DNA from: Sulfuricurvum sp.
GTDB taxonomy: Bacteria; Campylobacterota; Campylobacteria; Campylobacterales; Sulfurimonadaceae
Assembly (NCBI RefSeq): GCF_028681615.1
Contig: NZ_JAQUHV010000012.1
Location: 9,152-73,151, forward strand
Length of the DNA stretch: 64,000 bases
Reading direction: 5' to 3'
The position numbers and the translations under genes were made by a program. Under the pieces are notes generated by a model. The model worked only from the letters and a program-made list of their open reading frames with translations. It did no database searches and was not told the origin of the DNA. Positions 25,852 to 53,549 of the stretch are shown piece after piece (the first letter of the stretch is position 1; the number at the start of each line of letters is the position of its first letter).

Positions 25852-25875
25852 CGTTATATCATTTAAGATATAACG
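25852..25875. promoter_or_regulatory. perfect spaced palindrome CGTTATATC-ATTTAA-GATATAACG; candidate ModE-type operator (box 1)
   Basis: Perfect 9+9 inverted repeat with a 6-nt spacer, immediately downstream of a TATAAT at 25844-25849 and 20 nt upstream of ATG 25896. Confidence 0.5.
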
Positions 25876-25895
25876 TTTGAATGAAAGGGGTTGAT

Positions 25896-26411
25896 ATGAC
25901 AAAAATAATGAGTAGGGGGATAAAAAACATTACCCCTGAAATTCCCGCGTTGCCGTCACTCCATCTGTATATGATATGGGGAGAGGAGAAAATCCGTCAA
26001 ATGGTCCGTTATCACCACAATTTACTGCGTCTTAGTGAATTGGATAATTTCTTATCGAATGATCACGATAAGTTTGAACATGCTACTCGTAAAACTGCTG
26101 ATTTTTTTGTGGATGTTCTATCGAATGGTAGATTTTCAAAAACACAATACGCTTATCCGGCTCTAAAAATGCGTTATTTTCAAATAACCGTTGATGAACA
26201 TGCACGTGATGTATGGCTGGAGATGTATAAAAAAGCGATCAAAGATATGAAAATGCCATCTGAATGCATCGAAGATTTTTGGAATTGGATTGAACCTTTG
26301 TCACTTTGGATGATCAACCGTCGCACCATGGCACACGTACCCCGATATCCTTATAAAGATATTTGGATTGACTTTGTAGAGATGAAGATGTTTGGTTCGT
26401 GCAGTGGATAG
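25896..26411 (+). CDS. globin-like protein resembling group II truncated hemoglobin (paralogue A; proximal-His position is Tyr)
   Basis: Aligns by eye to the trHbO core (YPALKMRYFQITVDEHARDVWL against GHPRLRMRHAPFRI..RDAWL) and to paralogue B at 50456-51034. Start set at ATG 25896 (AAAGGGG SD); ATG 25881 is also possible. Confidence 0.6.
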   Translation: MTKIMSRGIKNITPEIPALPSLHLYMIWGEEKIRQMVRYHHNLLRLSELDNFLSNDHDKFEHATRKTADFFVDVLSNGRFSKTQYAYPALKMRYFQITVDEHARDVWLEMYKKAIKDMKMPSECIEDFWNWIEPLSLWMINRRTMAHVPRYPYKDIWIDFVEMKMFGSCSG

Positions 26412-26437
26412 GCATAGAGGAGGGGAGGATAGTCTTC

Positions 26438-26483
26438 TCAGTCAATTTCATTTAGATGGTATTGACTGAGGCGACTACGCCTC
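26438..26483 (+). terminator. two overlapping hairpins downstream of the globin-like gene
   Basis: TCAGTCAAT-N14-ATTGACTGA (26438-26469) and GAGGCG-acta-CGCCTC (26468-26483). No clear U-tract. Confidence 0.3.
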
Positions 26484-26499
26484 AAAGACATCGACAATA

Positions 26500-26604
26500 C
26501 CGTTTTATGTATCATTGGAATTTTTTTAGCTCCTGCTCTGCTCTTGCGTTAATTGCGAATTACCACTTCATAAATACGTAGATTCTAGATGATACATAAA
26601 ACGG
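26500..26604. repeat. 16-bp perfect inverted repeat flanking a 73-bp spacer
   Basis: CCGTTTTATGTATCAT (26500-26515) and ATGATACATAAAACGG (26589-26604), in a convergent intergenic region. Confidence 0.6.
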
Positions 26605-26626
26605 GGAGGTAAGACAATCGACCTCC
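26605..26626 (-). terminator. hairpin immediately after the stop of the 26628 gene
   Basis: GGAGGT-N10-ACCTCC. On the minus strand it is followed by CCGTTTTATG. Confidence 0.35.
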
Positions 26627-26627
26627 A

Positions 26628-27140
26628 TTACGCTGCAAAAATCAGGTTTCCGCTATAAAGTTCATGTGAAGATGTTTTCATTGGCTCTTTTTGAAGCATG
26701 ATCGAAAAGATTTTCATTGCATCGGTGCGGTTTTTGGAAGCGATGGTTTCAATCGCTTCTTCCATATCAATTACCATGATGTGTTCATGATGTAATTTGT
26801 CTCGAATAGCTATGGTATCCAAACCCAAAAAGCGGCAAAATTCTCCCAGACTCTTAGTGTGCAGAGCATTGGGCAAAAGTTGTGATGCGCATGAAGATGT
26901 TATTTCTCCCATCGATGCGAGAGACACTATCTGTTCTGAGAGTTTTTTCAGTTTTTGCCGCATCATATAAACATGCATCGGGATGACACCCAAAAAGAGA
27001 AATCCGGCACCCATATGATAACCCGTTACATCAAACGGATAAAGTCCGGATTGATTCAGAACGACAGTGATTACAATCATAAGGACACTGGCGATCATTA
27101 ACGAAATCGTTACCGCTTTTAATACTACTCTACTTTTCAT
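26628..27140 (-). CDS. membrane protein (2 TM plus a cytoplasmic Cys-containing domain), paralogue of 35340-35825
   Basis: Start set at MKSRVVLK (AAGGGG SD). Shares the HxYxxRxKLKKL juxtamembrane motif, L(G/R)E(F/L)C and IAxxNxxDxxKIF with the 35340 gene. Confidence 0.5.
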   Translation of the reverse strand: MKSRVVLKAVTISLMIASVLMIVITVVLNQSGLYPFDVTGYHMGAGFLFLGVIPMHVYMMRQKLKKLSEQIVSLASMGEITSSCASQLLPNALHTKSLGEFCRFLGLDTIAIRDKLHHEHIMVIDMEEAIETIASKNRTDAMKIFSIMLQKEPMKTSSHELYSGNLIFAA

Positions 27141-27164: not shown

Positions 27165-27188
27165 CATTATATCTTTTTTGATATAATG
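27165..27188. promoter_or_regulatory. perfect spaced palindrome CATTATATC-TTTTTT-GATATAATG; candidate ModE-type operator (box 2)
   Basis: Perfect 9+9 inverted repeat with a 6-nt spacer in the divergent region between 27140 (-) and mop 27367 (+). Confidence 0.45.
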
Positions 27189-27272
27189 ATTGATGTTATG
27201 ATATATGCATAAAGTATTCACGATGAACGGGTAGATTATTTCGATTAATATTAAACAAAAATAAGTATGCGC

Positions 27273-27289
27273 TATATCATCATATACAT
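27273..27289. promoter_or_regulatory. TATAT-N7-TACAT element upstream of mop
   Basis: TATATcatcataTACAT matches the E. coli ModE descriptor TATAT-N7-TAYAT as I recall it. It lies 78 nt upstream of the mop ATG. Confidence 0.35.
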
Positions 27290-27366
27290 AAGCTAAAATT
27301 TAAGTTTATTTGCGTGATACTTTCGTCAACCGCAGACATTCATCCAAAATTTTTAAAGGATATGTC

Positions 27367-27783
27367 ATGAAAACAAGTGCACGTAACGAGATCAAAGGGA
27401 CCATTACCGAGATCAAAAAAGGTCAGATTAACAGTGAAGTTGTCCTCTCGGTAGGCGGCGATGTCGTTTTGAAATCTGTAATTACCAATGATTCTGTAGA
27501 TGAGATGGAATTAGTCGTCGGCGAAACGATTTGTGCCATCATCAAAGCTCCCTTTGTTATGGTTGCAAAAGAAAAACCGGGTAAAATCAGCACTCGAAAT
27601 ATCATTGAAACCAAAGTAACCGAAGTAAAAAAAGGGATCGTTAACGGCGAATTGAAACTCGCTATGGGTGATCAAACCCTCACTGCCGTAATCACGGAAG
27701 ATTCTGTCGAAGATTTGGATTTTAAAGTAGGCGATACCGTTTACGCCCTCATCAAAGCAAACTTCATCATCCTCGCTAAATAA
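27367..27783 (+). CDS. mop: molybdenum-pterin-binding protein Mop (tandem TOBE domains)
   Basis: 138 aa from MKTSARNEIKGTITEIK (AAAGGA SD). Two TOBE repeats, each beginning with SARN/STRN...G.V.E. Confidence 0.8.
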   Translation: MKTSARNEIKGTITEIKKGQINSEVVLSVGGDVVLKSVITNDSVDEMELVVGETICAIIKAPFVMVAKEKPGKISTRNIIETKVTEVKKGIVNGELKLAMGDQTLTAVITEDSVEDLDFKVGDTVYALIKANFIILAK

Positions 27784-30923: not shown

Positions 30924-31799
30924 TTAGGGTAGCGGTATGAGGATAGGGTTAAACGCTTTGGTCGAGATTATAGCGTGTCCGCCCACACGTAGTTCTGAAG
31001 CCTCAGTGGAGCTAAGAACGGTACGAACGACGGAGGAGCCTACGAGCAGTGTTACGATCACGGCTGGAGAGTCCTCTTCGATTTTGAGAACCTCGCCGAT
31101 GAGCTGCAGTTTTCCGCTGAGGGCTTGCGGACTAAAGAACTCCATTGGGGGGCAGATCGATTTGATCCGTCCCGATTCGACGGAAGCGAGACGGTCGGAG
31201 AGCTTGACGGTTTCGGCGATGTCGTGGCTGACCAGAAGGGTCGTAACACCGAGACGTTGATGGATCAGGGTAAGTTCGTCCTGGAGTTTCTGGCGCATAA
31301 GAGGATCAAGCGCCGAGAGCGGTTCATCGAGGAGGAGAATTTTAGGACGGCGCACTAATGCACGGGCAAGGGCAACCCGCTGTTTCTGTCCGCCCGAGAG
31401 CGTGGAGGGGAGACGATCGGAGAGTGCGGTCAGCTCGACGAGTTCGATCAGCTCATCAATATTGGAACGTTGTTCACTGTTGTCCGCGGCAAACAGGAGA
31501 TTCTCACGTACGCTCATCGTAGGGAATAGGGCATAGTCTTGGAATACAAATCCGATGCTCCGTTTCTGGGGAGGGAGATTGATTTTTTTCGTACTGTCGA
31601 ACCACACTTCTCCGTCTACTTCGATCACTCCGCTATCGGGTTTTTCGAGACCTGCAATCATCCGCATCAACGTCGTTTTTCCCGCACCTGAGGGACCGAA
31701 GAGGGTTATAAATTCCCCATCCTCGATTTTTAGCTCAAAATGGGCTTGAAGTATCCCCTCTGCGGTGTCGAGCCGCTTTGTAATATTAAGAAATATCAT
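30924..31799 (-). CDS. modC: molybdate ABC transporter ATP-binding protein
   Basis: 291 aa with GPSGAGKTT, LSGGQKQRVALARAL, LLLDEPLSALD and a short TOBE-like C-terminus. Overlaps modB by 4 nt. Confidence 0.85.
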   Translation of the reverse strand: MIFLNITKRLDTAEGILQAHFELKIEDGEFITLFGPSGAGKTTLMRMIAGLEKPDSGVIEVDGEVWFDSTKKINLPPQKRSIGFVFQDYALFPTMSVRENLLFAADNSEQRSNIDELIELVELTALSDRLPSTLSGGQKQRVALARALVRRPKILLLDEPLSALDPLMRQKLQDELTLIHQRLGVTTLLVSHDIAETVKLSDRLASVESGRIKSICPPMEFFSPQALSGKLQLIGEVLKIEEDSPAVIVTLLVGSSVVRTVLSSTEASELRVGGHAIISTKAFNPILIPLP

Positions 31800-32470
31800 C
31801 GAATACCGCCCAACGATTTTTTATTGAGGGTGTAGACGAGAAGCAGTATCGCAAAGGTAACCGCAAAAAGGGTGAGGGCGTATTGGTGCGCCAGTGCGTA
31901 GTTGAGCGATTCGACCTCGTCATAGATGGCGATGGAAGCGACGCGGGTTTCACCCGGAATGTTTCCGCCTATCATGAGGATCACCCCGAACTCTCCGACC
32001 GTGTGGGCAAATGCGAGGACGATTCCGGAGATAAGACCGTGACGGATTGAGGGGAGGATGACACGCACCATCGTCTGGAGTTTTGATTTACCGAGGGTAT
32101 AGGCGGCTTCAAAAATCGAAGGCGGTACTTGGGAAAGGGCCGATTGGATCGGATGTACCATAAACGGTAAACTAAAGAGGACAGAGCCGACGACGAGCCC
32201 GTCAAAACTGAATGCAAGGCGGATGCCGTGTTCGGTCAAAAATTTTCCGATAAATGATGAGGGGGTAAAGGCGAGGAGGAGATAAAACCCTAAAACGGAC
32301 GGAGGCAGGACAAGCGGCATGGAAACGATTGTCTCTACGATACTTTTAAACCGCATGCGGCTAAAGACCAAGAACGATGCAAGGGGAATCGCAATCACAA
32401 GCAGTATCAGTGTCGTAACGGAGGCGAGTTTAAAGGTCAGCACCATCGTGCTGATGAATTCAGATTCCAT
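31796..32470 (-). CDS. modB: molybdate ABC transporter permease
   Basis: 224 aa, about 5 TM segments, with the EAA loop FEAAYTLGKSKLQTMVRVILP. Confidence 0.85.
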   Translation of the reverse strand: MESEFISTMVLTFKLASVTTLILLVIAIPLASFLVFSRMRFKSIVETIVSMPLVLPPSVLGFYLLLAFTPSSFIGKFLTEHGIRLAFSFDGLVVGSVLFSLPFMVHPIQSALSQVPPSIFEAAYTLGKSKLQTMVRVILPSIRHGLISGIVLAFAHTVGEFGVILMIGGNIPGETRVASIAIYDEVESLNYALAHQYALTLFAVTFAILLLVYTLNKKSLGGIR

Positions 32471-32861
32471 GGGTCTCTCTCAATAAGGATATTTCGCTCG
32501 GTTGAACCATCCAGCACACCTCGTCGCCTTCACGTATAGAGAGGGTGTTGAACGTCACTGTCGGCACGAGTGCCATGATCGTCGTCTCATGATAGGTGAG
32601 AGTGACTTGTGAGAGGATGATTCCGCGCTCTATGGTCTGAACCGACGCACGCTGCATGTTTGCGGTGGCGGCAGAGAGTGTGTCGGAAAGGATAACCTCG
32701 GTCTCTTTAAATGCCAGAGTCACAGGGGTATTGAGCAAATTTTTTTCATTTGACGCTTCGGCGAGGAGAAGATAAAACGTATCTTCCCCGACGGCAACCC
32801 CTAAACAGGAGAGGTGTTCGGATGAGGTGACGGAGGTAATGGAGGCTTTTAAAATATTCAT
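32460..32861 (-). CDS. TOBE-domain protein
   Basis: 133 aa with two TOBE-like half repeats. Overlaps both modD and modB. Confidence 0.55.
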   Translation of the reverse strand: MNILKASITSVTSSEHLSCLGVAVGEDTFYLLLAEASNEKNLLNTPVTLAFKETEVILSDTLSAATANMQRASVQTIERGIILSQVTLTYHETTIMALVPTVTFNTLSIREGDEVCWMVQPSEISLLRETHGI

Positions 32862-33706
32862 AGCGGCTCAATTTTCACTTTGATATCGGCAGGCTGCGCG
32901 TTGTAGGGCGATGAGGTGACGATCATATCGACTCCCGTACTTGCATATTCGGCGATATTTTTAGTACTGATCCCTCCGGTCGCGATCAGGGTGATGTGAG
33001 GATAGTCGGCGCGCAATATACGGACGGCATCGGAGAGTTTGGTGAGAGGGAATTTCTCCAGTTGTAGAATATCGGCTCCCATACTGGCAAATTTCAACGC
33101 CTGAGCGATGTCTTCGGCTTCCATGACGATCTTTTTCTCGGGGTTCGATTTTTTGGTTTTATTGAGCGCTTCTGCGAATGCTTCATCTGCCGGAAAAAAG
33201 ACGCGGTGGTAGTCGAAGATGAGGATGCTTTCTGAGAGTCCCAAACGGTGAGCGACACCGCCACCCGATTCGACGGCTTTGATCGCAATCTTTTTTGTAA
33301 ACGGGGTCGTTTTGCGGGTAGTGGCGACGACGATATCGGGGTTGATCGAACGGGCTAAGAGGACCGCTTCGCGGGTATAGGTGGCGATACCGCTGGCGTA
33401 GTCGATCAGGTTTTGGACAGACTTCCAGATGCGGTGGATGTTTCCCGCTTCGCCGTGGGCTTCGAGAAAGACGCTTTTAGGGGGGATAAGGGTTCCGGAT
33501 TTCACAAATCCGTCGATCTCCAAACCATACAATCCGCACAGGCGTACGGCCTCTTCCATGCAGGAGACGACGAGAGGGCGTTCACGGGTGGCAAAGGTGA
33601 TGCGGGCACGCTGCTCACCGATCCCGAGCGATGCGGTTGTCAGATCGCCGTAGGGGACGTCTTCGCTCAAAAATGCTTCAAGTTCATGGTCATTGAGGAT
33701 AATCAT
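32858..33706 (-). CDS. modD: ModD protein (family resembling nicotinate-nucleotide pyrophosphorylase)
   Basis: Start at MIILNDHELEAFLSEDVPYGDLTT, which forms an ATGA overlap with the upstream methyltransferase stop. QPRTase-like fold motifs. Confidence 0.75.
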   Translation of the reverse strand: MIILNDHELEAFLSEDVPYGDLTTASLGIGEQRARITFATRERPLVVSCMEEAVRLCGLYGLEIDGFVKSGTLIPPKSVFLEAHGEAGNIHRIWKSVQNLIDYASGIATYTREAVLLARSINPDIVVATTRKTTPFTKKIAIKAVESGGGVAHRLGLSESILIFDYHRVFFPADEAFAEALNKTKKSNPEKKIVMEAEDIAQALKFASMGADILQLEKFPLTKLSDAVRILRADYPHITLIATGGISTKNIAEYASTGVDMIVTSSPYNAQPADIKVKIEPL

Positions 33707-34497
33707 ACCGATGTCTCCCATCCGATAAATGCCCAGTTGACGGCACGTGGAGGACGCTTTTGTCCAACGATCACCTCACGGTAATATTCGCGTGCTTTGA
33801 GTTTTTGCTCTTCGCTCAGCTCGTGTACGCTCCAGATCAACGATTCGACGAATTCATCTTCGGTGTTGCTTCGGACACTGCCTCTGCCTGTTTCGATGTA
33901 ATCGACGCGGGGGAGATAGCCTTGTGAATAGAGGAGGATAGGGATGTACCAATAGTCGGGTTTGGTTTTGACCTTTTTGCCGATGTAATCGAGGATGCTC
34001 ATGTCGACGAAACTCCCTCCTACTTTGTAGGTGAGATAGCACCGTTTACGCGCATGCGCAGACATTTTGGAGAGGGCGGCATCGACGTCGGAGACCTCCA
34101 TGGATCGGGAAGCGACAACGATATCGATCTGCGGCAACCGGCTCCAGTCATCTTCCCATCCGATATGATATGTTTTAATATTAGTGACCCCTTCGCGCGC
34201 GGCGTAGGCTTTCAGCTCTTCGAGCATTTGTGCGGAGAAGTCGATAGCAATGACCTCTTTGACCCGTTTTGCCAGCGGGATGGCCAATGTTCCCGGCCCG
34301 CATCCAATATCGAGAACGACCTCGTCACCGCTAATGTTCATGCGGGAAATAAAGTCGTCGACATACGGGCTGTTGATGACGGATGCCGCCATATCGGCAG
34401 ATTTTTCGTCCCAGTCACTGCTGGTTTTGCCTTTGAAATCGGTAGTGGCTTTGTGCTCTTTGTACATTGCCGCAAAATCGATCGGTTCTAAAAACAT
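33703..34497 (-). CDS. class I SAM-dependent methyltransferase
   Basis: 264 aa with motif I VLDIGCGPGTL. First gene of the modD-TOBE-modBC-slyD string. Confidence 0.7.
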   Translation of the reverse strand: MFLEPIDFAAMYKEHKATTDFKGKTSSDWDEKSADMAASVINSPYVDDFISRMNISGDEVVLDIGCGPGTLAIPLAKRVKEVIAIDFSAQMLEELKAYAAREGVTNIKTYHIGWEDDWSRLPQIDIVVASRSMEVSDVDAALSKMSAHARKRCYLTYKVGGSFVDMSILDYIGKKVKTKPDYWYIPILLYSQGYLPRVDYIETGRGSVRSNTEDEFVESLIWSVHELSEEQKLKAREYYREVIVGQKRPPRAVNWAFIGWETSV

Positions 34498-34521: not shown

Positions 34522-34545
34522 AATTGTATCCTATTTGATCTAACG
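34522..34545. promoter_or_regulatory. candidate ModE-type operator (box 3)
   Basis: On the gene-sense (minus) strand it reads CGTTAGATC-AAATAG-GATACAATT, 24 nt upstream of ATG 34497. Confidence 0.4.
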
Positions 34546-34570: not shown

Positions 34571-35347
34571 TCACTGGGAACTAGCCCCTTTTTTATAGAG
34601 TTTGAATGCAGAGAGGGTCAAAATTACTGCTAGCAAGAGTTGCAACATAGAACTGGGAATGCTTCCCAACATACTTTTACCGACCCATGCCCCGATAATC
34701 GATCCTGCAGCCATCCATGCAATAAAACGGAGATTGGGTTTGACGATTCGGAACGGTTCTTTTTTCCGGTAGCGGTATAAACCGATCATGATTGTAGGGA
34801 GGCTGATCATCAGACTGAGTGTTCCTGCGATTTTAATATCCACACCGTACAATAGGGCAATGGTTGGGATAATCAGTTCACCTCCCGCAACCCCTAGCAT
34901 ACTGCTAAAAAGTCCGATGATGATCCCTGCACTAAATCCCAAAAACGTCAATGCGCTTTGACCCAGTTCCAAGGGATTGAAATGGACTCTGGATTCGATG
35001 ATCATAACAATCGCCAATCCTCCAAGCAATACGGCGACAATCTTGTCTAGGCGTTTTTCGTCGATGCGTGATGCGATTCCTACTCCCATTGATGCTCCGA
35101 TAAGAGAACCTGACAACAAGGTAGCGACGATCGGTAAAAAAGAGGATACGGCACTCCATGATTCCCATCTGAAACTAAGCGATGATGCGACGGTAATCCA
35201 AGAAATGATCAGATTGATGATTATCGCGTGAACGGTAGAAAATTGGAAGATGAACGTGAGCAGCGGAAGACGAAATTCTGCTCCGCCAAGCCCTATCAAT
35301 CCCCCTAAGATACCGATGAGGGCACCGTACAAAAACGGTTTAAACAT
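34571..35347 (-). CDS. TauE/SafE (DUF81) family anion permease
   Basis: About 258 aa from MFKPFLYG, multi-TM, with a Gly-rich GGLIGLGGAEFRLPLL motif typical of the family. Confidence 0.75.
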   Translation of the reverse strand: MFKPFLYGALIGILGGLIGLGGAEFRLPLLTFIFQFSTVHAIIINLIISWITVASSLSFRWESWSAVSSFLPIVATLLSGSLIGASMGVGIASRIDEKRLDKIVAVLLGGLAIVMIIESRVHFNPLELGQSALTFLGFSAGIIIGLFSSMLGVAGGELIIPTIALLYGVDIKIAGTLSLMISLPTIMIGLYRYRKKEPFRIVKPNLRFIAWMAAGSIIGAWVGKSMLGSIPSSMLQLLLAVILTLSAFKLYKKGASSQ

Positions 35348-36027: not shown

Positions 36028-36036
36028 GGTTTTACC

Positions 36037-44596: not shown

Positions 44597-45384
44597 AGGG
44601 TTCCTTTATTGAAGATTGGGAGACAGCGGGTGTGGGTATCGTGGACGATGAGGTCGGCCTCGATTCCGTAGACGTTACGGATCATTTCAGGGGTTATTAC
44701 CTCTTCAGGAATACCATCGGCGATGATTTTACCTTTGTTCATTACCGCGACTCGACTGGAGACGAGCAGGGCATGGTCGGGGTAATGGGTCGTTTTTAGA
44801 AAAGTATACCCTTGCGTACTGAGTGAGACGATCAACTCCAAAAGACGGATTTGATTGCCGTAATCCAGACCCGAAACCGGCTCGTCCATAATAAATGTAT
44901 TGACCCCCTGAGAGAGCGCGCGTGCGAGAAGCACCATCTGTTTTTGCCCGCCGCTGAGCTGACCGAAGGGACGCGATGCCAAATCAGGAATCCCGACTCT
45001 CTCCAGTGATTCACGGGCAATGACGTAATCCTGCGCGGAGGGGGCGGCAAAAAAACCGAGTTTGGAAACTCTCCCCATAAGAACCATCTCCAGAACGCTG
45101 TAGTTGAACGGTACGTTGTTGTATTGCGGGATGTATGCGATATGTTCTGCAATCTCTCGGTGCGAGTAGCGGTGGAGAGTTTTTTCATTGAGCCATATTT
45201 CACCCTGTTGTGCATGGATCAGTTTGAGGATGAGGCGGATGAGGGTGCTTTTACCGCATCCGTTCGGTCCTAGCAAGCTTACGACTTCGCCGCGGCGGAG
45301 GGTGAAATCAATCCCCTCTAATACCGGACGTTTAGGATAAGAGAAATGGAGGTCGTTGACCGCTATTATAGGTTTTAGTTCCAT
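44593..45384 (-). CDS. ABC transporter ATP-binding protein (FecE/BtuD/MolC type)
   Basis: 263 aa with GPNGCGKST, LSGGQKQMVLLARAL and FIMDEPVSGLD. Confidence 0.85.
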   Translation of the reverse strand: MELKPIIAVNDLHFSYPKRPVLEGIDFTLRRGEVVSLLGPNGCGKSTLIRLILKLIHAQQGEIWLNEKTLHRYSHREIAEHIAYIPQYNNVPFNYSVLEMVLMGRVSKLGFFAAPSAQDYVIARESLERVGIPDLASRPFGQLSGGQKQMVLLARALSQGVNTFIMDEPVSGLDYGNQIRLLELIVSLSTQGYTFLKTTHYPDHALLVSSRVAVMNKGKIIADGIPEEVITPEMIRNVYGIEADLIVHDTHTRCLPIFNKGTL

Positions 45385-46397
45385 GCTGCCCTCGCGTTTT
45401 TAAGTACGATGATAAAGACGGGGATACCGATGAGCGATGTAAGGATTCCGATCGGGACTTCGACGCTGAATGCCAATCTGGAGATCGTATCGGCGAGAAG
45501 CAAAAACGCTCCGCCCACTATCGCTGAGAGCGGCATCAGCAAACGGTGCGAAGGGCCGACCGCCATACGGATGATATGGGGGATAATCAGCCCTATCCAT
45601 CCGATTATTCCTGCCATAACGACGGAGAGGGAACTGGCGATCGTCGCCAAAATGATAGCTCCCAGCCGAACCATCGTGACATTGATCCCCAATGCCTTCG
45701 CCTCTTCGTCTCCCAAACTCATTAGATCGAAATATTTCCCTAAAACAATCAGACCGATGACACTGGCGAGCATCGGAACAGATATGAGCAACACGCCGTG
45801 CAGATCCGCCATCGTCAGACTTCCCATCAGCCAATAGACGATTGCAGGGAGGGTACTGTAAGGATCGGCGAGGTATTTGATGATCGAGAGCAACGAGGTA
45901 AAGAGGGCACTGCTGATCACACCGCCGAGTACCAGCATGACGGTGGAACGTGAGTTGGTCACCATTGTGCCGATGAGTACGGCGACCCCGACCGCGACAA
46001 AACCGAATGCGAATGCGAGCAATTGGACGACAAACCATTGGTCAGAAATAAGCATCCCCATCGCCGCACCGAACGATGCCCCCGCGAGTACCCCTAAAAT
46101 CCCGGGAGATACGAGGGGATTGACGAACATCGCCTGAAACGCGGCACCTGATGTAGCGAGGGCAGATCCGATGAGTATGGCGAGCAGAACGCGCGGAAGA
46201 CGAATCTGCAAGATGATGTTATCGAGCATCGTAAAGGTATCGTTCCCCACCCCTCCGAAGACTTTAAACTGCAGGTAGCTGATCAACGTATCGAGTGTGA
46301 TCGGATATTGCCCCCAGAGTAGGGATAATGTGGCGACAACGAGTAAAAGCACGCTAGCGCCGATTATCCAACTGATCGGTTTGAACTTTTTCATCAT
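45375..46397 (-). CDS. FecCD/BtuC-family (type II importer) permease
   Basis: 340 aa, about 10 TM segments, with the typical LPRVLLAILIGSALATSGAAFQ segment. Confidence 0.85.
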   Translation of the reverse strand: MMKKFKPISWIIGASVLLLVVATLSLLWGQYPITLDTLISYLQFKVFGGVGNDTFTMLDNIILQIRLPRVLLAILIGSALATSGAAFQAMFVNPLVSPGILGVLAGASFGAAMGMLISDQWFVVQLLAFAFGFVAVGVAVLIGTMVTNSRSTVMLVLGGVISSALFTSLLSIIKYLADPYSTLPAIVYWLMGSLTMADLHGVLLISVPMLASVIGLIVLGKYFDLMSLGDEEAKALGINVTMVRLGAIILATIASSLSVVMAGIIGWIGLIIPHIIRMAVGPSHRLLMPLSAIVGGAFLLLADTISRLAFSVEVPIGILTSLIGIPVFIIVLKNARAAWN

Positions 46398-46402
46398 AGC
46401 CC

Positions 46403-48643
46403 TTAAAACTTCAGATTGATACTGCCATAAAGTCCGAACGGTGCACCCGTATTATAGGTACTTGCCGTTCCGGTCGCTGCCAAGAAGTTATCGGCGGCAT
46501 TGATCGTAGCGATGTATTTTTCGTTCGTCAGGTTGGTAGCCGTCAGACGGAAAAGGGCGTTATGTGAACCCATAAACTGTGCCATACGATAGGCGACATC
46601 GAAATCGATCAGGGTAAAGGCGTCTATTTTTTGGGTATTGGCGACATCTCCCCATCGGCTGGAGGTATATCGGGCGCTTGGGGTGAGCGTCCAGTCGCCT
46701 AGGTGATATGAAAGTGCCGCTTTTGCCATGTATTTCGGAGCGTCAGGGAGCTGTTTACCGTCGGTTTCAACGGTAGAAGAAGCGCCACTTTGGAAGTTTT
46801 GGGTGAATTGATAGCGGTTGTACGAGAGACCGAGCAAGAGTTCCAAATTTTCGCTGATCGGTCCGTATGCCGAGAATTCCGCTCCGTATCCGAGGGCATC
46901 TCCAACATTGGCAGGATAATTGACGCCGTAGGCAGGATCATAGATATTAGCCTGTTTGTTTTTGACGAACGAAACATAAAGACTTGGATTGAGAGTGAGC
47001 CCTCCAAGCGTTGTTTTGACTCCGAGATCAATATTATCGGAGAGTTCCAAATCGAGTTTATCCCACAGCTGTTGCAAGGTGACGTTTTGAGCTACAAAAC
47101 TCGAACGACTGGAAATATAGGTCGGGAATAGATTGACGTCGAATCCGTAGGTACGGGAATAATCGAGATATGCCATGGTCGATGGTGAAATCGTATATCC
47201 GAGGTAGAGCGACGGAATGAACGTATTAAAGGTTTTAGCCTCTACGCTTGCCCACGGATCAATGGCAGTCGATGCGATCGCAGCGTCATAGTCAGGATTG
47301 GCAGCGGATGTTTGATTTCCGTTGGTATGGCTTTTAAGCGAGCCGAGTTTGAATGTTTGGTACTGTGCTCCTGCCACATAGGTGAAACGATCAATCGTAC
47401 CGCTGATTTGGGCAAACGGTGCTTGGAGTGTATGGTAGTCGTTATTGGCGAGAACCGCATAGCCATCAAAGACCAAAGCACCGTTGACCACTTTGTATTT
47501 GATCTGGTCGCTCGGAGGCCCCGGAGGGAGCTGTTTGTGGTACCAATACCCGATTTTGGTTTTTAAAGCTTCGGAAAACTCATGGTCGTACGCAGCGGTT
47601 GCACCGTAGAGATCATGCTCCATACGCCAGTTCATGACACGCTGTTTTGCCGCAGCGGTATCGAATTTAGAAAACCAGTAATCTCCCTCATCTTTTTTAT
47701 AATACGGTTTGACCGTGATCGTATCACTCGTGGTTGGCTTGTATTCGAATTCTCCCAACAGAGCCGTTGTCAGGAAACTTTGTTTGTTCCAGTCGTAATA
47801 GTTGACATCATTGGAGGCGGTCGGCTGAGTCGTGGCAAAATCTTTGTTGAAATTTGCCCCTAAATTATTGGCTTCATTAAACGAGAGATTATAGTAGTTG
47901 TGGTGATCATCCGAGTTACGGATAGCCGTGACTTTGGCTTTGAACGTATTAGTAGGGGTGTAGGTAAGGCCCAAAGTACCGTTGAGACGTTTGAGATCCC
48001 CTTCACCTTTGGTTTTGTCATTGGAGAGATGAGAGAATGAGCCGAATACCGCTATATCGCCGACTTTGCCCGAATCGAATCGTACAAAAGTACGCTGAAA
48101 GTTATCCGAACCGAATGATTGAGAGACTTCCGCTCCGGCTTTTGATTTAGCCGTAAGGAGATTCAAATCGACTTTTCCGATGAGACTCGAGAAACCGAGG
48201 TTCTTATCGGCCGGTAGATACCCTTTGAGCAAATCGATCGAACTGACGTTTTCCATATCCACGAGCTGTTTTCCGCCTCCGGGATTACTGGAGATCGGCA
48301 TTCCGTCGATCATATAGACACCGCCGGGGCCGCTTTGGCTTTTTCCTCGTATACGGATCGGATCATGATACGAGGGTTCGTTGGAACCGGCCTGATCGAC
48401 GGGGGTAAAGTTGACCGATGGGGAATAAGCGATCACGCTGTAGGGATTCATATTCGCCTGAGTCGAGAGGGTTGCGATACTTTTGCCCGTGAAGGTTTGA
48501 TTCGCACTGCTTTGATTGGTATCAGCGATCATACTGTCACCATCGTCAACCGAGTCGGTTACAACGATCCGTTCGATCCCCAGAGGATCGGCGGCAAGAA
48601 TCGCACATGCGGCAAGGGAGAGGAAAATAGGGGAAAGTTTCAT
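46403..48643 (-). CDS. TonB-dependent outer-membrane receptor 3
   Basis: 746 aa with a signal peptide, a plug domain (IRIRGKSQSGPGGVYMIDGMP) and a barrel ending ...SINLKF. Confidence 0.8.
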   Translation of the reverse strand: MKLSPIFLSLAACAILAADPLGIERIVVTDSVDDGDSMIADTNQSSANQTFTGKSIATLSTQANMNPYSVIAYSPSVNFTPVDQAGSNEPSYHDPIRIRGKSQSGPGGVYMIDGMPISSNPGGGKQLVDMENVSSIDLLKGYLPADKNLGFSSLIGKVDLNLLTAKSKAGAEVSQSFGSDNFQRTFVRFDSGKVGDIAVFGSFSHLSNDKTKGEGDLKRLNGTLGLTYTPTNTFKAKVTAIRNSDDHHNYYNLSFNEANNLGANFNKDFATTQPTASNDVNYYDWNKQSFLTTALLGEFEYKPTTSDTITVKPYYKKDEGDYWFSKFDTAAAKQRVMNWRMEHDLYGATAAYDHEFSEALKTKIGYWYHKQLPPGPPSDQIKYKVVNGALVFDGYAVLANNDYHTLQAPFAQISGTIDRFTYVAGAQYQTFKLGSLKSHTNGNQTSAANPDYDAAIASTAIDPWASVEAKTFNTFIPSLYLGYTISPSTMAYLDYSRTYGFDVNLFPTYISSRSSFVAQNVTLQQLWDKLDLELSDNIDLGVKTTLGGLTLNPSLYVSFVKNKQANIYDPAYGVNYPANVGDALGYGAEFSAYGPISENLELLLGLSYNRYQFTQNFQSGASSTVETDGKQLPDAPKYMAKAALSYHLGDWTLTPSARYTSSRWGDVANTQKIDAFTLIDFDVAYRMAQFMGSHNALFRLTATNLTNEKYIATINAADNFLAATGTASTYNTGAPFGLYGSINLKF

Positions 48644-49662
48644 TGGTTGGCTCCTAATAGATTTTTAACTTGTTCATCACTCAGTTTTACATGTAAGAAA
48701 AGTTCATAGAACTCTTTGGTGCGGACACTCAGGTCGGGTTTAAACTCTTTCGGATGGAATAAATGGGCCAGCCATTGGATTCCGATCACCCGCATAAACG
48801 ATGGCGGACGGTCGATCCAGTTAAACGGCTGGATCGGTACGAGATAGATACGGCCGGATTTGAGTGCTTTTAGATTTTTCCAAAGGGGATCGTCGATCAG
48901 ATCATTATAGACAGCCCGGTTTTGGACGATAATGACATCCGGATTGTAGGTCATGAGTTTTTCAAAATTGATTTTTTCCAGACCGAGTAGACCGCTTTGT
49001 TGGCATTTATGGACGTTCTCACCTCCGGCAAAATTGAGCGCTTCGACATGAAACGACGTATCGCATTCGGTAGAGAGGCCATCGGTCCCTTCCGCGTAGT
49101 AGTAGCGTGTCGGTTTGACTTTGGAGACACTGGTGTGGACTTCATCGATTATTTTTTGAGAGTAATTGGCCAAAATATTTGCCTGTTTACTCTCACCGAT
49201 TGCCGCTCCGGCCAGACGAAATGCACGTGGCATGTCGTTCACTTCACGAAACGGGATCATAAAAGTCGGGAGATGGGTTTTTTCGATTTCACGTTGTACG
49301 GTTTGGACCATCATGTCGTCTTGCCACAGTAATACCAGCTGGGGTTTATAGGCCATCAACGTTTCAAGATTGATACTCTGACCCCCTCCGTGAAACGATC
49401 CGATCACCGGTAGTGAAAGAAATTTTGGGTTGAGAAAGCTTTCATTCGCTCCGTTATTGCCATTTTTTGCCGAAAAGTTCAATCCGATCATCTTATTCGG
49501 ATTGAGTGCATAGATGAGATAGTTCATTGGCGGAGATGAACCGAAAACCCGATCGGTTTGATCCGGGAGTATGACGGGATGTCCATCCATATCTGTTACT
49601 GTTTTCGCATGTGCAGCGAGAACAATCACCGATAAGAGGAGGAGTTTTGAGAGCGTATTCAT
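48640..49662 (-). CDS. periplasmic binding protein, class III, copy 3
   Basis: 340 aa with a signal peptide, YYYAEGTDGLSTECDTSFH and FNWIDRPPSFMRVIGIQWL. Confidence 0.8.
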   Translation of the reverse strand: MNTLSKLLLLSVIVLAAHAKTVTDMDGHPVILPDQTDRVFGSSPPMNYLIYALNPNKMIGLNFSAKNGNNGANESFLNPKFLSLPVIGSFHGGGQSINLETLMAYKPQLVLLWQDDMMVQTVQREIEKTHLPTFMIPFREVNDMPRAFRLAGAAIGESKQANILANYSQKIIDEVHTSVSKVKPTRYYYAEGTDGLSTECDTSFHVEALNFAGGENVHKCQQSGLLGLEKINFEKLMTYNPDVIIVQNRAVYNDLIDDPLWKNLKALKSGRIYLVPIQPFNWIDRPPSFMRVIGIQWLAHLFHPKEFKPDLSVRTKEFYELFLHVKLSDEQVKNLLGANQ

Positions 49663-49671
49663 GGGATTCCT

Positions 49672-50454
49672 TTAGGATTTGTGTAAATTAAATGCGATAG
49701 GGATACTCAGTTCAAAGGTCTTTCCCAATGCGGGGTAATCACCGCTGAGGCTGAAAATCGTTTGAATCGCTTTATTGTCCAGAAGTGTACTGCCGCTGGT
49801 CGTGATCACTTTTGCGGCTTCAACAATTCCGTTAGGTTTAAGTACAAACGATACCACCACAATCCCCTCGATACGAAGTTTACGAGCGATTGCGGGGTAG
49901 GTGATTGCATGTTCGATCATAGCCCGTATATTTCCCAACGCCGCTCCGCCGATTTCGTTGCTGGAAACTAGGTTTCTTGGTAATTCGTTTTCAGAGTCGG
50001 AGGAAACACTCTTATGAGGAGAATCAATGAGTGATGATGGCGGAGCCGAAATGACGGGAACAGGTGGAGCTAGAGGCGCGGACGCCTCAGAGGACACCGA
50101 AGGAGTTAATGACGGCATCCTCTCAGGGGTCGTTTTTGCAATGGTGTGCACTTCATTCGGTACACTCGGTGTGGTTTTCGCTTTGGGAACGGTAATGGAT
50201 TTCGGTGTCTGCTTTTGGACGATAGAGTGTTCGAGCATATTTCGATCCCCCGTAGTGGAGGCAAACTCCGAAAGGGAGATGATAACTCTCTCTTCTTGGG
50301 GTTCCATCAGGACCGGGTGGGTTGACATAAAATAGACGATTCCCGCCAACACGGCACTGTGAACCCCAAATGATGCGCCGAAAGATTTGAATTTTAATAA
50401 GAAATTCTTATATTGTATCTTTTCTGATATAACGATTGAGCTTAAAAAATACAT
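49672..50454 (-). CDS. tonB: TonB-family energy transducer
   Basis: Start taken at MYFLSS. One TM segment, a Pro/Ser-rich linker and a TonB C-terminal domain (YPAIARKLRIEGIVVVSFVLKPNG). Confidence 0.7.
   Translation of the reverse strand: MYFLSSIVISEKIQYKNFLLKFKSFGASFGVHSAVLAGIVYFMSTHPVLMEPQEERVIISLSEFASTTGDRNMLEHSIVQKQTPKSITVPKAKTTPSVPNEVHTIAKTTPERMPSLTPSVSSEASAPLAPPVPVISAPPSSLIDSPHKSVSSDSENELPRNLVSSNEIGGAALGNIRAMIEHAITYPAIARKLRIEGIVVVSFVLKPNGIVEAAKVITTSGSTLLDNKAIQTIFSLSGDYPALGKTFELSIPIAFNLHKS
50411..50434. promoter_or_regulatory. ModE-type box lying inside the first about 15 codons of tonB (box 5)
   Basis: On the gene-sense strand it reads CGTTATATC-AGAAAA-GATACAATA. It lies 22 nt downstream of the stop of globin-like gene B. 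Confidence 0.3.
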
Positions 50455-50455
50455 T

Positions 50456-51034
50456 TTAATTTTCCTCAATTTTATTTTTATTCCATATCGATGCATACGG
50501 ATAACGTTCGATCGGTGCGACTGTTGTTCGTCGGTTGATCATCCGGATTGATAGCGGCTCGATCCAGTTCCAGAACTCTTCGATACGCTCTTTGGGCATC
50601 CCGAGGTCATTGATCGTTTTTTTATACATCATCAGCCAGATTTCACGACCTTTTTCATCGATCGTGATATGAAAATGGCGCATCCGAAGAGCAGGGTGGC
50701 CGTGTACCGGAGTGTACGCTTTTTCACCGCCGAGTGCTTCGACGAAAAAATCAGCCGTTTTTTCCGTTGCAAAGGCAAACGCCGCATCGTCTGCAGGAAA
50801 CAAATTCCCGATGGTACTTTTTCTCAATAATCCATGATGGTAACGGACCATTCTGCGAATGTTGTCTTCTCCCCATTGTTGGTAGAGGAGAATCGAGGGA
50901 AAAGGGACTTCGGGATAAACAAAGTCGATTTTGGCTTCAGCGGTATTGGGTGTCATACTCGCTGGTTCAAACGGTTTGGTCCCGCAGGAACTAAACATCG
51001 ATACCGGTTTTCCATCAGACATTAAGAGATTCAT
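50456..51034 (-). CDS. globin-like protein resembling group II truncated hemoglobin (paralogue B; proximal His retained)
   Basis: 192 aa. GHPALRMRHFHITIDEKGREIWL matches the trHbO GHPRLRMRHAPFRI..RDAWL core. An N-terminal extension of about 45 aa is present. Confidence 0.65.
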   Translation of the reverse strand: MNLLMSDGKPVSMFSSCGTKPFEPASMTPNTAEAKIDFVYPEVPFPSILLYQQWGEDNIRRMVRYHHGLLRKSTIGNLFPADDAAFAFATEKTADFFVEALGGEKAYTPVHGHPALRMRHFHITIDEKGREIWLMMYKKTINDLGMPKERIEEFWNWIEPLSIRMINRRTTVAPIERYPYASIWNKNKIEEN

Positions 51035-51230
51035 TGCATTTCCTTTTATAAAAGATCAACTTCTGCCTCGACAGAGGCAAGCTTTAGTGCCATAGCGGCA
51101 AGCGCAGCGAAAGGGATTTTATTCCTTTCGCGTTCAAATCAAATAGAACATCAGGGGAGACGACAGGTTTTATTGAATAACCGCAGACAAACCTTCCTGT
51201 CGTCTCTGCTCATGCCCCGGAGGGCATAGA
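51035..51230 (-). promoter_or_regulatory. GC-rich intergenic region with several hairpins (candidate terminator plus structured 5' leader)
   Basis: Four hairpins: 51212-51227 (ATGCCC/GGGCAT), 51157-51206 (11-bp stem GAGACGACAGG/CCTGTCGTCTC, 28-nt loop), 51107-51131 (GCGAAAGG/CCTTTCGC) and 51064-51079 (TGCCTC/GAGGCA). Confidence 0.35.
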
Positions 51231-52601
51231 TTAAAAACGGTAGTTCGCTTCCAAACGCATTTCGCGGTTAGAAGTTTCAGCCGTTGCCAATGTTGATTTT
51301 TCATTGTTTTGATCCATCAGACGGGCTTTGAGTTCCGTCCCTTTCCAACTGCCGGATAGTTTGTAAATTACGTCCAAATTCCATTGACGGGTATCGCCGT
51401 TTCCGTAGGCTCTATCTGTCATGCTTTGGTAGGGTTTTTTACTCGGGTCGCGGTTATAATACGCGTAGCTGAGCATCGTACTGACACCCGGTACGATCGC
51501 ATCACAGTCGTAATCAAATTCTGCTTTATACGAGGTAGTATTGGCATTCCAGTCGGTTTGCGTCATACTGCGGGTATAACCCTGTGTCGGGAATCCGCGC
51601 CATGGAGCGATCATATCTCCGCCGCCGTCCGTATGCGATGTCGCAAGCAGGAATTTAGCCGCACGATAGTTAGCGGTTGCACGCAATGCATAGAGATAGG
51701 TGTCCACACTGTTGTCGCTGTCGTAATTGTTTGCTTTCGGCAGGATAATATTTCCGGCACCTTGATCGTATTGTTTCATGTACAACCCGCCGAATCCGAG
51801 GATGACATCCCCCGCTTCAAGAGCATAATTCGCTTCAAGACGGAGATGATCGATCAAATCAGGCCAATGCATAACCCACCCTTGGAGTTCGAGATTGTCA
51901 ATCGATTTATTGGTTACACCGACGACACTGACATTGGGCGCGTCTCCGTGTCTAACCGTAGCGGTACCGTATCCGGTATCATAATAGTTACTGATTTTTG
52001 TCGGTGTATCGAGTGTTTCGGCCATATTTCCGAAATAGTCCATACCGCGCTCTTTGATCTTTTCGATGTAGTCCAGTTGAATAGTCGTGTTGAGAACATC
52101 ATTGGAAACGAAATCGACCCCTTCATATGCGATCGGGATCATTTTAGTATCGTTGGGTGACATCCATGGGTTCGTTACGAGCATACGGCCCGCTCTGATT
52201 TTGCTTTTGGCGATATCGTATTGCAGATACGCTTGCGCTAAAACAGCATATCCGTCTCCATAGTTGTACGCCGATCCCGGACCACGTGCAAAGAGATCTT
52301 TTGAAGTATTGGCATATTTTCCATCCTCTGCTTCGGTCCATCCGCCCGGATTTTGAGTAGTATACAGACCGGTTCCGAAACTAAATCCGTACAACGGTGC
52401 CGTTTTGTAGATCAAACTCCCCCCTACAGCAAAGCCGGTTGCGCTGTATTTGCTATCATCATCCCAATCGGTTACAAAATATTGGGCTCTGAGACGACCG
52501 TCCAGTTTCCCTTCTTTAAACGCCGAAGCCAAATCATCTGCCGCTTGGGCAAAGAGACAGGTTCCCAGAACAAGTGCGGTTGCAATACTTAATTTTGTCA
52601 T
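51231..52601 (-). CDS. outer-membrane porin (resembles the OprD family)
   Basis: 456 aa with a signal peptide (CLFAQA), alternating beta-strand pattern and a C-terminal ...EANYRF. Confidence 0.6.
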   Translation of the reverse strand: MTKLSIATALVLGTCLFAQAADDLASAFKEGKLDGRLRAQYFVTDWDDDSKYSATGFAVGGSLIYKTAPLYGFSFGTGLYTTQNPGGWTEAEDGKYANTSKDLFARGPGSAYNYGDGYAVLAQAYLQYDIAKSKIRAGRMLVTNPWMSPNDTKMIPIAYEGVDFVSNDVLNTTIQLDYIEKIKERGMDYFGNMAETLDTPTKISNYYDTGYGTATVRHGDAPNVSVVGVTNKSIDNLELQGWVMHWPDLIDHLRLEANYALEAGDVILGFGGLYMKQYDQGAGNIILPKANNYDSDNSVDTYLYALRATANYRAAKFLLATSHTDGGGDMIAPWRGFPTQGYTRSMTQTDWNANTTSYKAEFDYDCDAIVPGVSTMLSYAYYNRDPSKKPYQSMTDRAYGNGDTRQWNLDVIYKLSGSWKGTELKARLMDQNNEKSTLATAETSNREMRLEANYRF

Positions 52602-52609
52602 TTTTTTAT

Positions 52610-52633
52610 CCTTATTTATTTTTTGATATAACG
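52610..52633. promoter_or_regulatory. candidate ModE-type operator (box 6)
   Basis: On the gene-sense strand it reads CGTTATATC-AAAAAA-TAAATAAGG and ends 8 nt before the porin ATG. Confidence 0.35.
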
Positions 52634-52684
52634 TGTATCAAGCAACGTAAATTGCTGATGCTCGCCTCATTCGAGGCTGAACGA

Positions 52685-53440
52685 TTATTTTTTTGGCAAG
52701 CCGTAGCCGCTCGCTTTTAAAATTTCTAACGCTTTTGCAGAGGACATAAATCGGAGGAATTTTTTGGCAGCGATCTGATTTTCAGGTGAGCCGTTTTTGA
52801 GTCCTACCATCGCCTGATCGATCGTGTTGTACGATTTAGGATCGATTTCAATCCATTGACCGACATTTTTCATTTCAGGTGAGAGGACGATAGATTTAGC
52901 GATAAATCCTAGGTCAACCGCTTTTGTTGATACATAGTTTCCAACTTGAGAAATGGATTCGGCCGTGATGATCTTCGGTGCGATAGCCCCGTCGACTTTG
53001 TAATAGTGCATCGTATTCATTGCTTCGATACCGTACGGGGCAGTTTTAGGATTTGCAACCGCAATTTTCGAAACTTTTGGGTCAGTAACAGCGGCTACCC
53101 CTTTAGAGAGATCAACACCCGTATTGCTCCATAGGACGAGTGACCCGTAAGCATAGACTTGAGACGGTGTTGTCGTATAGCCGCCAAGTGCCAGTTTTGC
53201 AGGATATTCGACATCCGCAGAGAGAAATACATCATACGGTGCACCGCTCATGATTTGTTGAGTCAATTTACCAGAAGAGCCGGTGATGATTTTTACACCG
53301 ATTCCGCTCTCTTCAGTAAATGCTTTTGCAATGTCGTTTGCAGCGTATTTCATGTTGGCGGCAGTAGCAACGGTGATCGTTTGTGCAGCGAGTGCGGAGG
53401 CAAACGCGAGGGATGCCAATACAATTTTAATCAGTTTCAT
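52685..53440 (-). CDS. modA: molybdate ABC transporter substrate-binding protein
   Basis: 251 aa with a signal peptide and ITVATAANMKYA...TGSSGKLTQQIMSGAPYDVFLSAD, typical of ModA. Confidence 0.85.
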   Translation of the reverse strand: MKLIKIVLASLAFASALAAQTITVATAANMKYAANDIAKAFTEESGIGVKIITGSSGKLTQQIMSGAPYDVFLSADVEYPAKLALGGYTTTPSQVYAYGSLVLWSNTGVDLSKGVAAVTDPKVSKIAVANPKTAPYGIEAMNTMHYYKVDGAIAPKIITAESISQVGNYVSTKAVDLGFIAKSIVLSPEMKNVGQWIEIDPKSYNTIDQAMVGLKNGSPENQIAAKKFLRFMSSAKALEILKASGYGLPKK

Positions 53441-53448
53441 GGAAACTC

Positions 53449-53472
53449 CTTAGTATCTGTTTTGATATAACG
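53449..53472. promoter_or_regulatory. candidate ModE-type operator (box 7), proximal to modA
   Basis: On the gene-sense strand it reads CGTTATATC-AAAACA-GATACTAAG and ends 8 nt before the modA ATG. The right arm overlaps the AAGGAG SD. Confidence 0.5.
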
Positions 53473-53525
53473 AAAATTACAAATTTACTTGTGCAAAAAC
53501 GGTTCGCAAAAAAACGTGACATTTT

Positions 53526-53549
53526 CGTTGTGTTTTGTAAGATATAACG
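53526..53549. promoter_or_regulatory. candidate ModE-type operator (box 8), distal to modA
   Basis: On the gene-sense strand it reads CGTTATATC-TTACAA-AACACAACG, 85 nt upstream of the modA ATG. Confidence 0.4.

Follow-up and report, generated by a model that had tools for sequence, protein, structure and literature searches.

Which regulator reads the spaced palindrome that recurs at operon fronts in the Sulfuricurvum sp. contig NZ_JAQUHV010000012.1, and what do the genes behind it serve to acquire? The stretch analyzed here, hereafter the window, comprises 64,000 nucleotides (positions 9,152 to 73,151 of the contig), and an earlier note made on it had listed eight copies of a 24-bp box, composed of two 9-nt arms around a 6-nt spacer, across a 28-kb island that runs from modE to a globin-like gene (globin A). 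The boxes are very probably the operators of the molybdate- or tungstate-loaded dimer of ModE, the regulator encoded at 53600-54376. As an operator the box is ordinary, being the canonical Mo-box, and it is the TonB-dependent branch that is the new part of the predicted regulon.

The repeated palindrome and its match to ModE

With up to three mismatches allowed, the pattern CGTTATATC-N6-GATATAACG occurs at seven sites in the window versus 0.03 in dinucleotide-preserving shuffles, namely at 25852 (no mismatch), at 27165 (two) and at 43571, 50411, 52610, 53449 and 53526 (three each); the eighth box, at 34522, has four. The boxes at 25852 and 27165 are perfect 9+9 palindromes, the latter with arms CATTATATC...GATATAATG in which the second base and the last but one depart from the consensus, and the exact 9-mer of the box is present six times with 0.51 occurrences expected. 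All boxes are intergenic except that at 50411, which lies inside the tonB coding sequence. Scanning the 64 kb with a first weight matrix, built from the eight window sites, returned no further site above 10 bits. A second, independent matrix, whose training was confined to 77 sites of genomes in which ModE and window ModE are less than 85% identical, scores seven window sites at 23.8-36 bits, with 19.5 bits as the best of 30 shuffles. The observation of a repeated palindrome is confirmed, with small corrections: the eight copies that the earlier note had claimed are real, that at 34522 being weak yet conserved, and its two perfect palindromes, its count of at least six 9-mers and its seven intergenic boxes are all borne out.

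Window ModE aligns to E. coli ModE (1o7l) over residues 15-250 (E 3e-30), with a highly similar helix-turn-helix region and with SARN, ITxxS and K kept; the Thr, Ser and Lys listed as molybdate ligands of ModE (PMC11672702) are conserved in it. The protein scores 95.4 bits with ModE_repress, just below the 98.5 cutoff, and 65.4 bits with Mop, above the cutoff of 55, and the whole of it aligns to E. coli ModE, so that its earlier description as full length stands. Published consensus sequences for E. coli ModE read ATCGNTATATA-N6-TATATANCGAT (PMC545781) and ATCGCTATATA-N6-TATATAACGAT (PMC2700814). Scanned with the window matrix, the modE-modA region of E. coli K-12 scores best at CGTTATATTGTCGCCTACATAACG, which stands 20 nt ahead of the modA ATG; this operator has the identical 24-bp frame and agrees with the window consensus at 15 of its 16 outer bases. 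The Methanosarcina acetivorans ModE motif RTTATGT-N8-RCATAAY, verified by electrophoretic mobility shift assay, likewise has a 7-N8-7 geometry (PMC12327845). The boxes follow the ModE-operator pattern CGnTATAT-N8-ATATAnCG in the 24-bp frame and stand at molybdate transport promoters, two before modA and one before the modD-modBC operon. The statement in the earlier note that ModE operators are AT-rich inverted repeats of TATAT type agrees with the E. coli consensus and modA operator, and its proposal that the motif is the local ModE operator appears sound, fitting the published operators, the intact ModE gene alongside and the conservation of the boxes.

This conservation was assessed in a ModE scan of one genome per species, which gave 80 loci, all from Sulfuricurvum, Sulfurimonas or relatives of the same order, with ModE 94-70% identical to that of the window in Sulfuricurvum and ~56-64% identical in Sulfurimonas. 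Scanned with the matrix at a minimum of 20 bits, these loci contain 132 sites downstream of modE (599 kb) versus 0 upstream (585 kb), the nearest gene downstream of the site being modA in 41 cases, tonB in 17, mop in 15, the porin gene in 9, that for binding protein 3 in 9 and that for globin B in 6. A site of this strength follows modE in 55/77 loci, and in the other 22 the mod and receptor genes are also missing downstream of modE, except in locus L028, where sub-threshold boxes are present. A matrix-free search of the 260 nt after the modE stop in the 77 loci, set against 30 control regions, returns CGTTAT-N12-ATAACG as the commonest inverted 6-mer pair (22/77 loci, 0/30 controls), and the next-ranked pairs are nested registers of this same palindrome, likewise with 0/30 in the controls. 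In both genera the boxes are kept at orthologous positions, present where their target genes are present; for the orthologous porin genes, 9/24 have a box of at least 18 bits.

A metagenome scan with the perfect palindrome listed 80 loci ranging from 32 to 73% GC. Compared by BLAST with the window proteins, the neighbors in these loci are modE (20), modA (17), modC (17), modB (14) and a TonB-dependent receptor (7), and Pfam analysis of 115 nonredundant flanking open reading frames gives SBP_bac_11, the ModA family, 14 times, SBP_bac_1 nine times and the receptor Plug seven times. The order modE-box-receptor is seen in L097 and L117 and modE-box-OprD-like porin in L126, and L133, at 69% GC, has a box, a receptor, a binding protein, a FecCD permease and an ATPase in series.

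Several observations weigh against reading every box as a ModE operator. By the independent matrix the 34522 box reaches 15.5 bits, a value attained by 5/30 shuffles and marginal as a score; we accept it as a weak site because its CGTTAGATC variant is also kept upstream of the orthologous methyltransferase gene in L049 and L028. A ninth box, likewise weak (27270-27293), has a score of 10.0 bits with the same matrix, which is chance level; it lies at -97 from mop, and orthologous mop genes in L016, L040 and L043 have weak boxes at -94, so that both weak sites are supported by their conservation in related loci. Next, 14/80 metagenome loci (L082, L087, L088, L095, L102, L106, L112, L116, L122, L131, L151, L154, L157 and L160) represent a single luxS/yidD intergenic site of a low-GC organism with no adjacent molybdenum (Mo) genes. 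A perfect palindrome alone is therefore no proof of a ModE site, and the one at luxS/yidD may reflect chance or an unrelated use, or else be an unforeseen target of ModE. Finally, the promoter positions at the boxes are ones that we infer, and at the porin and tonB boxes no clear -10 element was found, so that these two may act on read-through transcription and not on promoters of their own.

The TonB-dependent branch and rival readings

The operon headed by tonB (43619-50454) is, going by its predicted proteins, that of a TonB-dependent receptor with an ATP-binding cassette (ABC) importer of type II. Its FecCD-type permease has HI1471 MolB as best PDB match (2nq2_A, 8.6e-59), ahead of FhuB, HmuU and BtuC, and its ABC ATPase has HI1470 MolC (2nq2_C, 7.4e-41). 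None of the three receptors of the island scores above a family cutoff in NCBIfam; receptor 1 has no PDB relative at 1e-10, and the PDB matches of receptor 3 are weak and C-terminal only (CntO, FoxA). In Sulfurimonas loci, modE and a box pair are followed by tonB or the gene for binding protein 3, then by receptor 3, FecCD permease, ATPase and modD. Here modD lies within the FecCD permease-ATPase operon (L058, L060, L063, L064, L066, L071 and L072, most of them with binding protein and receptor genes), and no modA occurs downstream of modE in these loci. Molybdate is taken in by MolBC-A, whose MolA binds tungstate as well, and the regulation of the system has been termed "poorly understood" (PMC4031551). 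Because the importer resembles MolBC, because modD is linked to it in Sulfurimonas and because the receptors lack close relatives of solved structure, the substrate that we favor for the predicted branch is Mo or tungsten (W), or a complexed form thereof.

Sulfurimonadaceae share this arrangement, and boxes paired with receptors turn up again in unrelated bacteria of high GC. A search of the open-access literature found no characterized TonB-dependent receptor that is ModE-regulated or Mo-specific. As a tentative proposal, somewhat less likely than not, ModE would control a dedicated, energized Mo/W route across both membranes, in which the OprD-type porin and the three receptors feed a MolBC-A-like importer with three binding proteins, beside ModABC. 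For the binding proteins the likeness to Mol components is less clear, in that the best named PDB match of binding proteins 3 and 2, HI_1472 MolA, is distant (6e-14 and 8.8e-12, respectively): they are far closer to the uncharacterized 4pag, and two uncharacterized structures outrank MolA.

The boxes may also be ModE operators with the receptors and FecCD-type importer carrying iron, siderophore, haem or corrinoid, co-regulated for Mo-independent backup enzymes or nitrogenase cofactors. Receptors and binding proteins of these families mostly serve the uptake of Fe-siderophores, haem and B12, two globin-like genes lie within the regulon, the ModE regulon of M. acetivorans has operons annotated as Fe ABC transporters (PMC12327845), and the receptor-ModA-OprD-like cluster of Acidithiobacillus ferrooxidans has been read as a dual Fe/Mo supply for nitrogenase (PMC2631029). 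We regard such cargo as a real but less likely rival, as the permease and ATPase are closest to MolBC, the best named relative of the binding proteins is MolA, modD sits inside the importer operon in Sulfurimonas, Fur boxes do not exceed chance and a cobalamin riboswitch is absent. For an E. coli-type Fur box (GATAATGATAATCATTATC-like, 19 bp) the best window matches have 6/19 mismatches, 13 in number where shuffles have 4-15, and no operon front bears one, the scan having used the E. coli-type consensus in a phylum that may have a divergent Fur motif. The Fur alternative raised in the earlier note finds no support in these chance-level counts. An Rfam search of the whole window gave no match, and thus neither a molybdenum cofactor nor a cobalamin riboswitch. 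A Fur-family gene lies at 60828-61310, 6.5 kb from modE.

Three further genes are predicted to be co-transcribed with the receptors, those for a luciferase-like monooxygenase (38767-39858), a methyltransferase (39785-40567) and a TauE/SafE-family permease (34571-35380). A TauE-family gene is also present in Sulfurimonas operons. The presence of these predicted proteins hints that the imported species is chemically processed.

Two other readings concern the boxes themselves. The palindrome could be read by another regulator, either the OmpR-type response regulator (25077-25766) or the Fur homolog (60828-61310), given that both genes are in the window and that the 25852 box has the response-regulator gene on one side and globin A on the other. 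This we consider most improbable, as the boxes track modE and not these genes in 55 genome loci and in unrelated metagenome contigs, the motif is unlike a Fur box and its sequence is that of known ModE operators. OmpR-family regulators, moreover, generally use direct repeats and not palindromes. Least credible of all is a dispersed nonregulatory element (repetitive extragenic palindromic- or miniature inverted-repeat transposable element-like, or duplicated promoter DNA), which nine copies in 28 kb of an AT-rich sequence resembling a -10 element could suggest, yet which does not fit because only 24 bp are shared, with differing flanks, and because the copies are confined to the island (none in the 36 kb of the window outside it, nor in the 585 kb upstream of modE in the related loci), where they hold orthologous positions relative to start codons in genomes with ModE 56-94% identical.

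Box placement, proposed repression and layout of the island

With the boxes read as ModE operators, their placement can be described from 129 orthologous sites, the consensus of which is tTCGTTATATC-(A/T-rich N6)-GATATAACGAa. When sites are oriented relative to the downstream gene, the 5′ arm has 0.22 mean mismatches and the 3′ arm 2.4. The 3′ arm of the proximal modA/mop and porin boxes closes with AAG or AGG and continues into the Shine-Dalgarno sequence, and this overlap is in part why the 3′ arm is degenerate; the ATG stands 7-8 nt past these boxes in nearly all of ~40 orthologous cases. Thus, in the window, the final three bases of the proximal modA box open the Shine-Dalgarno sequence AAGGAG, with the ATG 8 nt after the box, and the porin box overlaps its Shine-Dalgarno sequence 8 nt before the ATG, a gap that is 7 nt in 9/10 orthologous porin boxes listed. 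A TATAAT, at 53552-53557 (minus strand) for the distal modA box and at 25844-25849 for the globin A box, stands 2 nt ahead of either box, and 20 nt separate the end of the globin A box from the likely ATG at 25896. TATAAT or a one-base variant is found at most 12 nt upstream of the orthologous distal modA box in nearly all Sulfuricurvum loci. The distance between the two modA boxes is bimodal, at 71 bp in 10 loci and 76-77 bp in 24.

The tonB box occupies nucleotides 21-44 of the tonB coding sequence (ATG 50454, minus strand), right after the globin B stop. Among 19 genomes its 5′ arm is invariant but for one substitution, and identity at third codon positions is 91% within the box and 54% downstream of it, which argues that not only the peptide but also the DNA is under selection; the conserved N-terminal peptide reads xVISxKIQ.

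The stretch that separates the two modA boxes (53473-53525), like its counterparts in 34 loci, contains a conserved block, AAAWTGTC...GAAC...TTTTTGCA. RNAalifold on 35 sequences from between the boxes gives no consensus pairs and thus no hairpin or attenuator, the block being kept as sequence only. A sigma-70 promoter and terminator scan of 43400-54500 returns chance-level counts, the promoters of this phylum being poorly covered by such a scan, and the sigma-54 promoter pattern has 15 matches with 22.7 expected and none at an operon front.

Positions at the transcription start, in leader or ribosome-binding-site DNA and just inside a gene point to repressor-type boxes; the direction of regulation, like the binding of ModE itself, is something we infer. 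Mo-bound ModE gains DNA affinity and represses modABC (PMC11672702), and because of this known repression, together with the repressor-type positions, abundant Mo/W turning off the whole island is the most likely reading. With molybdate or tungstate plentiful, ModE on the 24-bp inverted repeat would shut off contiguous Mo/W-acquisition units: modA; the OprD-type porin with globin B; tonB with a receptor and the MolBC-A-like type II ABC importer; the second receptor operon; the methyltransferase-modD-modBC operon; the small membrane protein; and globin A. Repression would come about by occupation of the transcription start, where the box lies 2 nt past TATAAT, or of the ribosome-binding-site DNA, and at tonB ModE would act as a roadblock within the first codons. 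The far-upstream weak mop box would perhaps serve to activate the gene for this Mo-buffering protein instead. Wiethaus et al. (2006) reportedly found the Mo-box of the activated R. capsulatus (Rhodobacter capsulatus) mop gene further upstream than in repressed genes, a position that the weak mop box resembles.

The features of the island are collected in Table 1; the gene identities proposed earlier all hold by Pfam and NCBIfam. Together with the boxes they support a predicted regulon of modA, the OprD-family porin, two globin-like genes, modD-modBC, mop and three TonB-dependent receptors with an ABC importer.

Table 1. Boxes and genes from modE to globin A (positions in the window; box scores by the independent matrix; gap, distance in nt from box to start codon)
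Feature	Position	Strand	Box sequence or assignment	Bits	Gap
modE	53600-54376	-	full-length regulator, winged helix-turn-helix and two Mop/TOBE domains (Pfam HTH_1 and two TOBE; NCBIfam PRK10676, ModE_repress, Mop)		
distal modA box	53526-53549	-	CGTTATATCTTACAAAACACAACG (gene orientation)	27.0	85
proximal modA box	53449-53472	-	CGTTATATCAAAACAGATACTAAG	25.3	8
modA, periplasmic molybdate-binding protein	52685-53440	-	TIGR01256 (cutoff 62.5); Pfam SBP_bac_11	165.8	
porin box	52610-52633	-	CGTTATATCAAAAAATAAATAAGG	23.8	8
OprD-family porin	51231-52601	-	Pfam OprD		
globin-like gene B	50456-51034	-	Pfam Bac_globin; PDB 4nk1 at 9.4e-47		
tonB box	50411-50434	-	CGTTATATCAGAAAAGATACAATA; within tonB codons 7-14	26.8	
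tonB, binding protein 3, TonB-dependent receptor 3, FecCD-type permease, ABC ATPase, binding protein 2	43619-50454	-	Pfam		
receptor 2 box	43571-43594	-	CATTATATCAATTATGATATAAAA; before ATG	27.2	32
receptor 2, binding protein 1, methyltransferase, luciferase-like monooxygenase, receptor 1, hyp244, hyp161, TauE-family permease	34571-43538	-	Pfam, NCBIfam		
weak box before methyltransferase-modD-modBC operon	34522-34545	-	CGTTAGATCAAATAGGATACAATT; before ATG	15.5	24
methyltransferase, modD, hyp133, modB, modC	30924-34497	-	Pfam; modD TIGR01334 (cutoff 178.85)	281.6 (modD)	
mop, cytoplasmic molybdate-binding protein, two Mop domains	27367-27783	+	Pfam two TOBE; TIGR00638; N-terminal SARN motif		
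ninth weak box	27270-27293	+	CGCTATATCATCATATACATAAGC; before likely mop ATG at 27367	10.0	73
box before small membrane protein	27165-27188		CATTATATC-N6-GATATAATG; perfect palindrome; before ATG	29.6	24
small membrane protein	26628-27140	-	no known family; paralog of hyp161 (35340-35825)		
globin A box	25852-25875	+	perfect consensus	36.0	20
globin-like gene A	25896-26411	+	Pfam Bac_globin; likely ATG 25896		

The modE start overlaps the stop of an upstream aroE-like gene, and the flanks of the island are housekeeping in character, with lysS, glyA, trpE and aroE lying upstream of modE, and helicases, dnaJ and genes of sugar metabolism at the opposite end. Genes for molybdenum cofactor biosynthesis or molybdoenzymes (moa, dms, nap, fdh) are absent from the window. 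The methyltransferase-modD-modBC gene order is conserved in related loci, and this unit may extend via FKBP-like, LemA and M48 genes to 27835. Boxes orthologous to that at 43571 follow binding protein 2 in L004, L006, L039, L045 and L069, and the L040 box orthologous to 25852 scores 31.1 bits.

Both globin-like proteins match Bac_globin and are closest to PDB 4nk1, a hemoglobin-like protein; globin B has RMRH where 4nk1 has RARH, and so keeps the proximal His that, beside the Bac_globin fold, is a criterion for group II truncated hemoglobins, globin A has KMRY with Tyr for His, and neither has an obvious signal peptide. The proteins encoded at 26628-27140 and 35340-35825 are paralogs (BLASTP 28% identity, E 4e-24), both with a membrane hairpin at the N terminus and a conserved domain at the C terminus and both within the box-controlled island; no Pfam family scores above cutoff for either, a relaxed search giving only sub-threshold DUF4405/cytochrome b561 matches. 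Between modD and modB lies hyp133 (133 aa, 32460-32861), a position kept in many loci. Its single match in the relaxed Pfam search is a sub-threshold one to TOBE (E 0.03), and it may represent a divergent Mop-like domain.

Relation to known systems and significance

The closest parallel is E. coli ModE/modABC, with the same regulator architecture and a 24-bp repeat as operator, which reads CGTTATAT-N8-ACATAACG in E. coli versus CGTTATAT-N8-ATATAACG in the window. There the operator lies ~20 nt before the modA ATG, and repression of molybdate uptake by Mo-ModE is established (PMC11672702). The bases flanking the spacer are C and G in the window versus T and T in the E. coli operator (A and T in the consensus), and the window spacer is AT-rich. 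Unlike in E. coli, modA of the window has two boxes, the 5′ arm is near-invariant with a degenerate 3′ arm that doubles as Shine-Dalgarno sequence, and the regulon is a single 28-kb island with TonB-dependent receptors, a porin and globins. The ModE regulon of M. acetivorans, like that of the window, extends beyond modABC, in its case to transporters annotated as Fe ABC (PMC12327845), but it is governed by an archaeal ModE with one Mop domain, has alternative nitrogenases as main targets and lacks an outer membrane and TonB system. In R. capsulatus, the ModE-like repressors MopA and MopB act with molybdate on Mo-boxes at mopA-modABC, anfA and morAB (PMC6925177); this system differs in having two paralogous regulators, and a TonB-dependent receptor is not mentioned in PMC6925177.

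As regards transport, Haemophilus influenzae MolBC-A (HI1470, HI1471 and HI1472) is a type II molybdate/tungstate importer whose MolB and MolC are the best PDB matches of the window permease and ATPase, with MolA as the best named match of the binding proteins. MolBC-A is of low affinity (PMC4031551), whereas the window system comprises three binding proteins, is linked with tonB and TonB-dependent receptors, and is preceded by ModE boxes. In Campylobacter jejuni, of the same phylum, a ModE-like regulator represses the oxyanion uptake operons mod and tup (PMC3417520); that protein is without a metal-binding domain, whereas window ModE is full length with its ligand residues. The nearest literature precedent for the TonB branch is a genomic note on A. 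ferrooxidans, in which receptors, TonB, ABC transporters, ModA-like proteins and an adjacent OprD-like gene are co-located, as here, and in which Fur boxes and a link to nitrogenase are described and no ModE operator is reported (PMC2631029).

How molybdate and tungstate pass the outer membrane is largely unsettled, a review on C. jejuni merely presuming porins (PMC3417520). The locus supplies conserved, box-bearing candidates, an OprD-family porin and receptors tied to a Mol-type importer, and with them a directly testable idea. If true, molybdate or tungstate, or a chelated or thiolated form of them relevant in sulfidic habitats, would for the first time have outer-membrane transporters assigned, and the globin-like, luciferase-like, methyltransferase and TauE-family genes would help handle the imported form. 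The boxes also make up a natural series of candidate ModE operators, graded in strength and fixed in position at the transcription start, the ribosome-binding site or the coding sequence, useful for studying how one repressor tunes many promoters. The chief interest of the locus lies in two things: the conserved reach of the putative regulon, which takes in a porin, receptors, globin-like genes and a Mol-type importer, and the uncommon placement of its operators.

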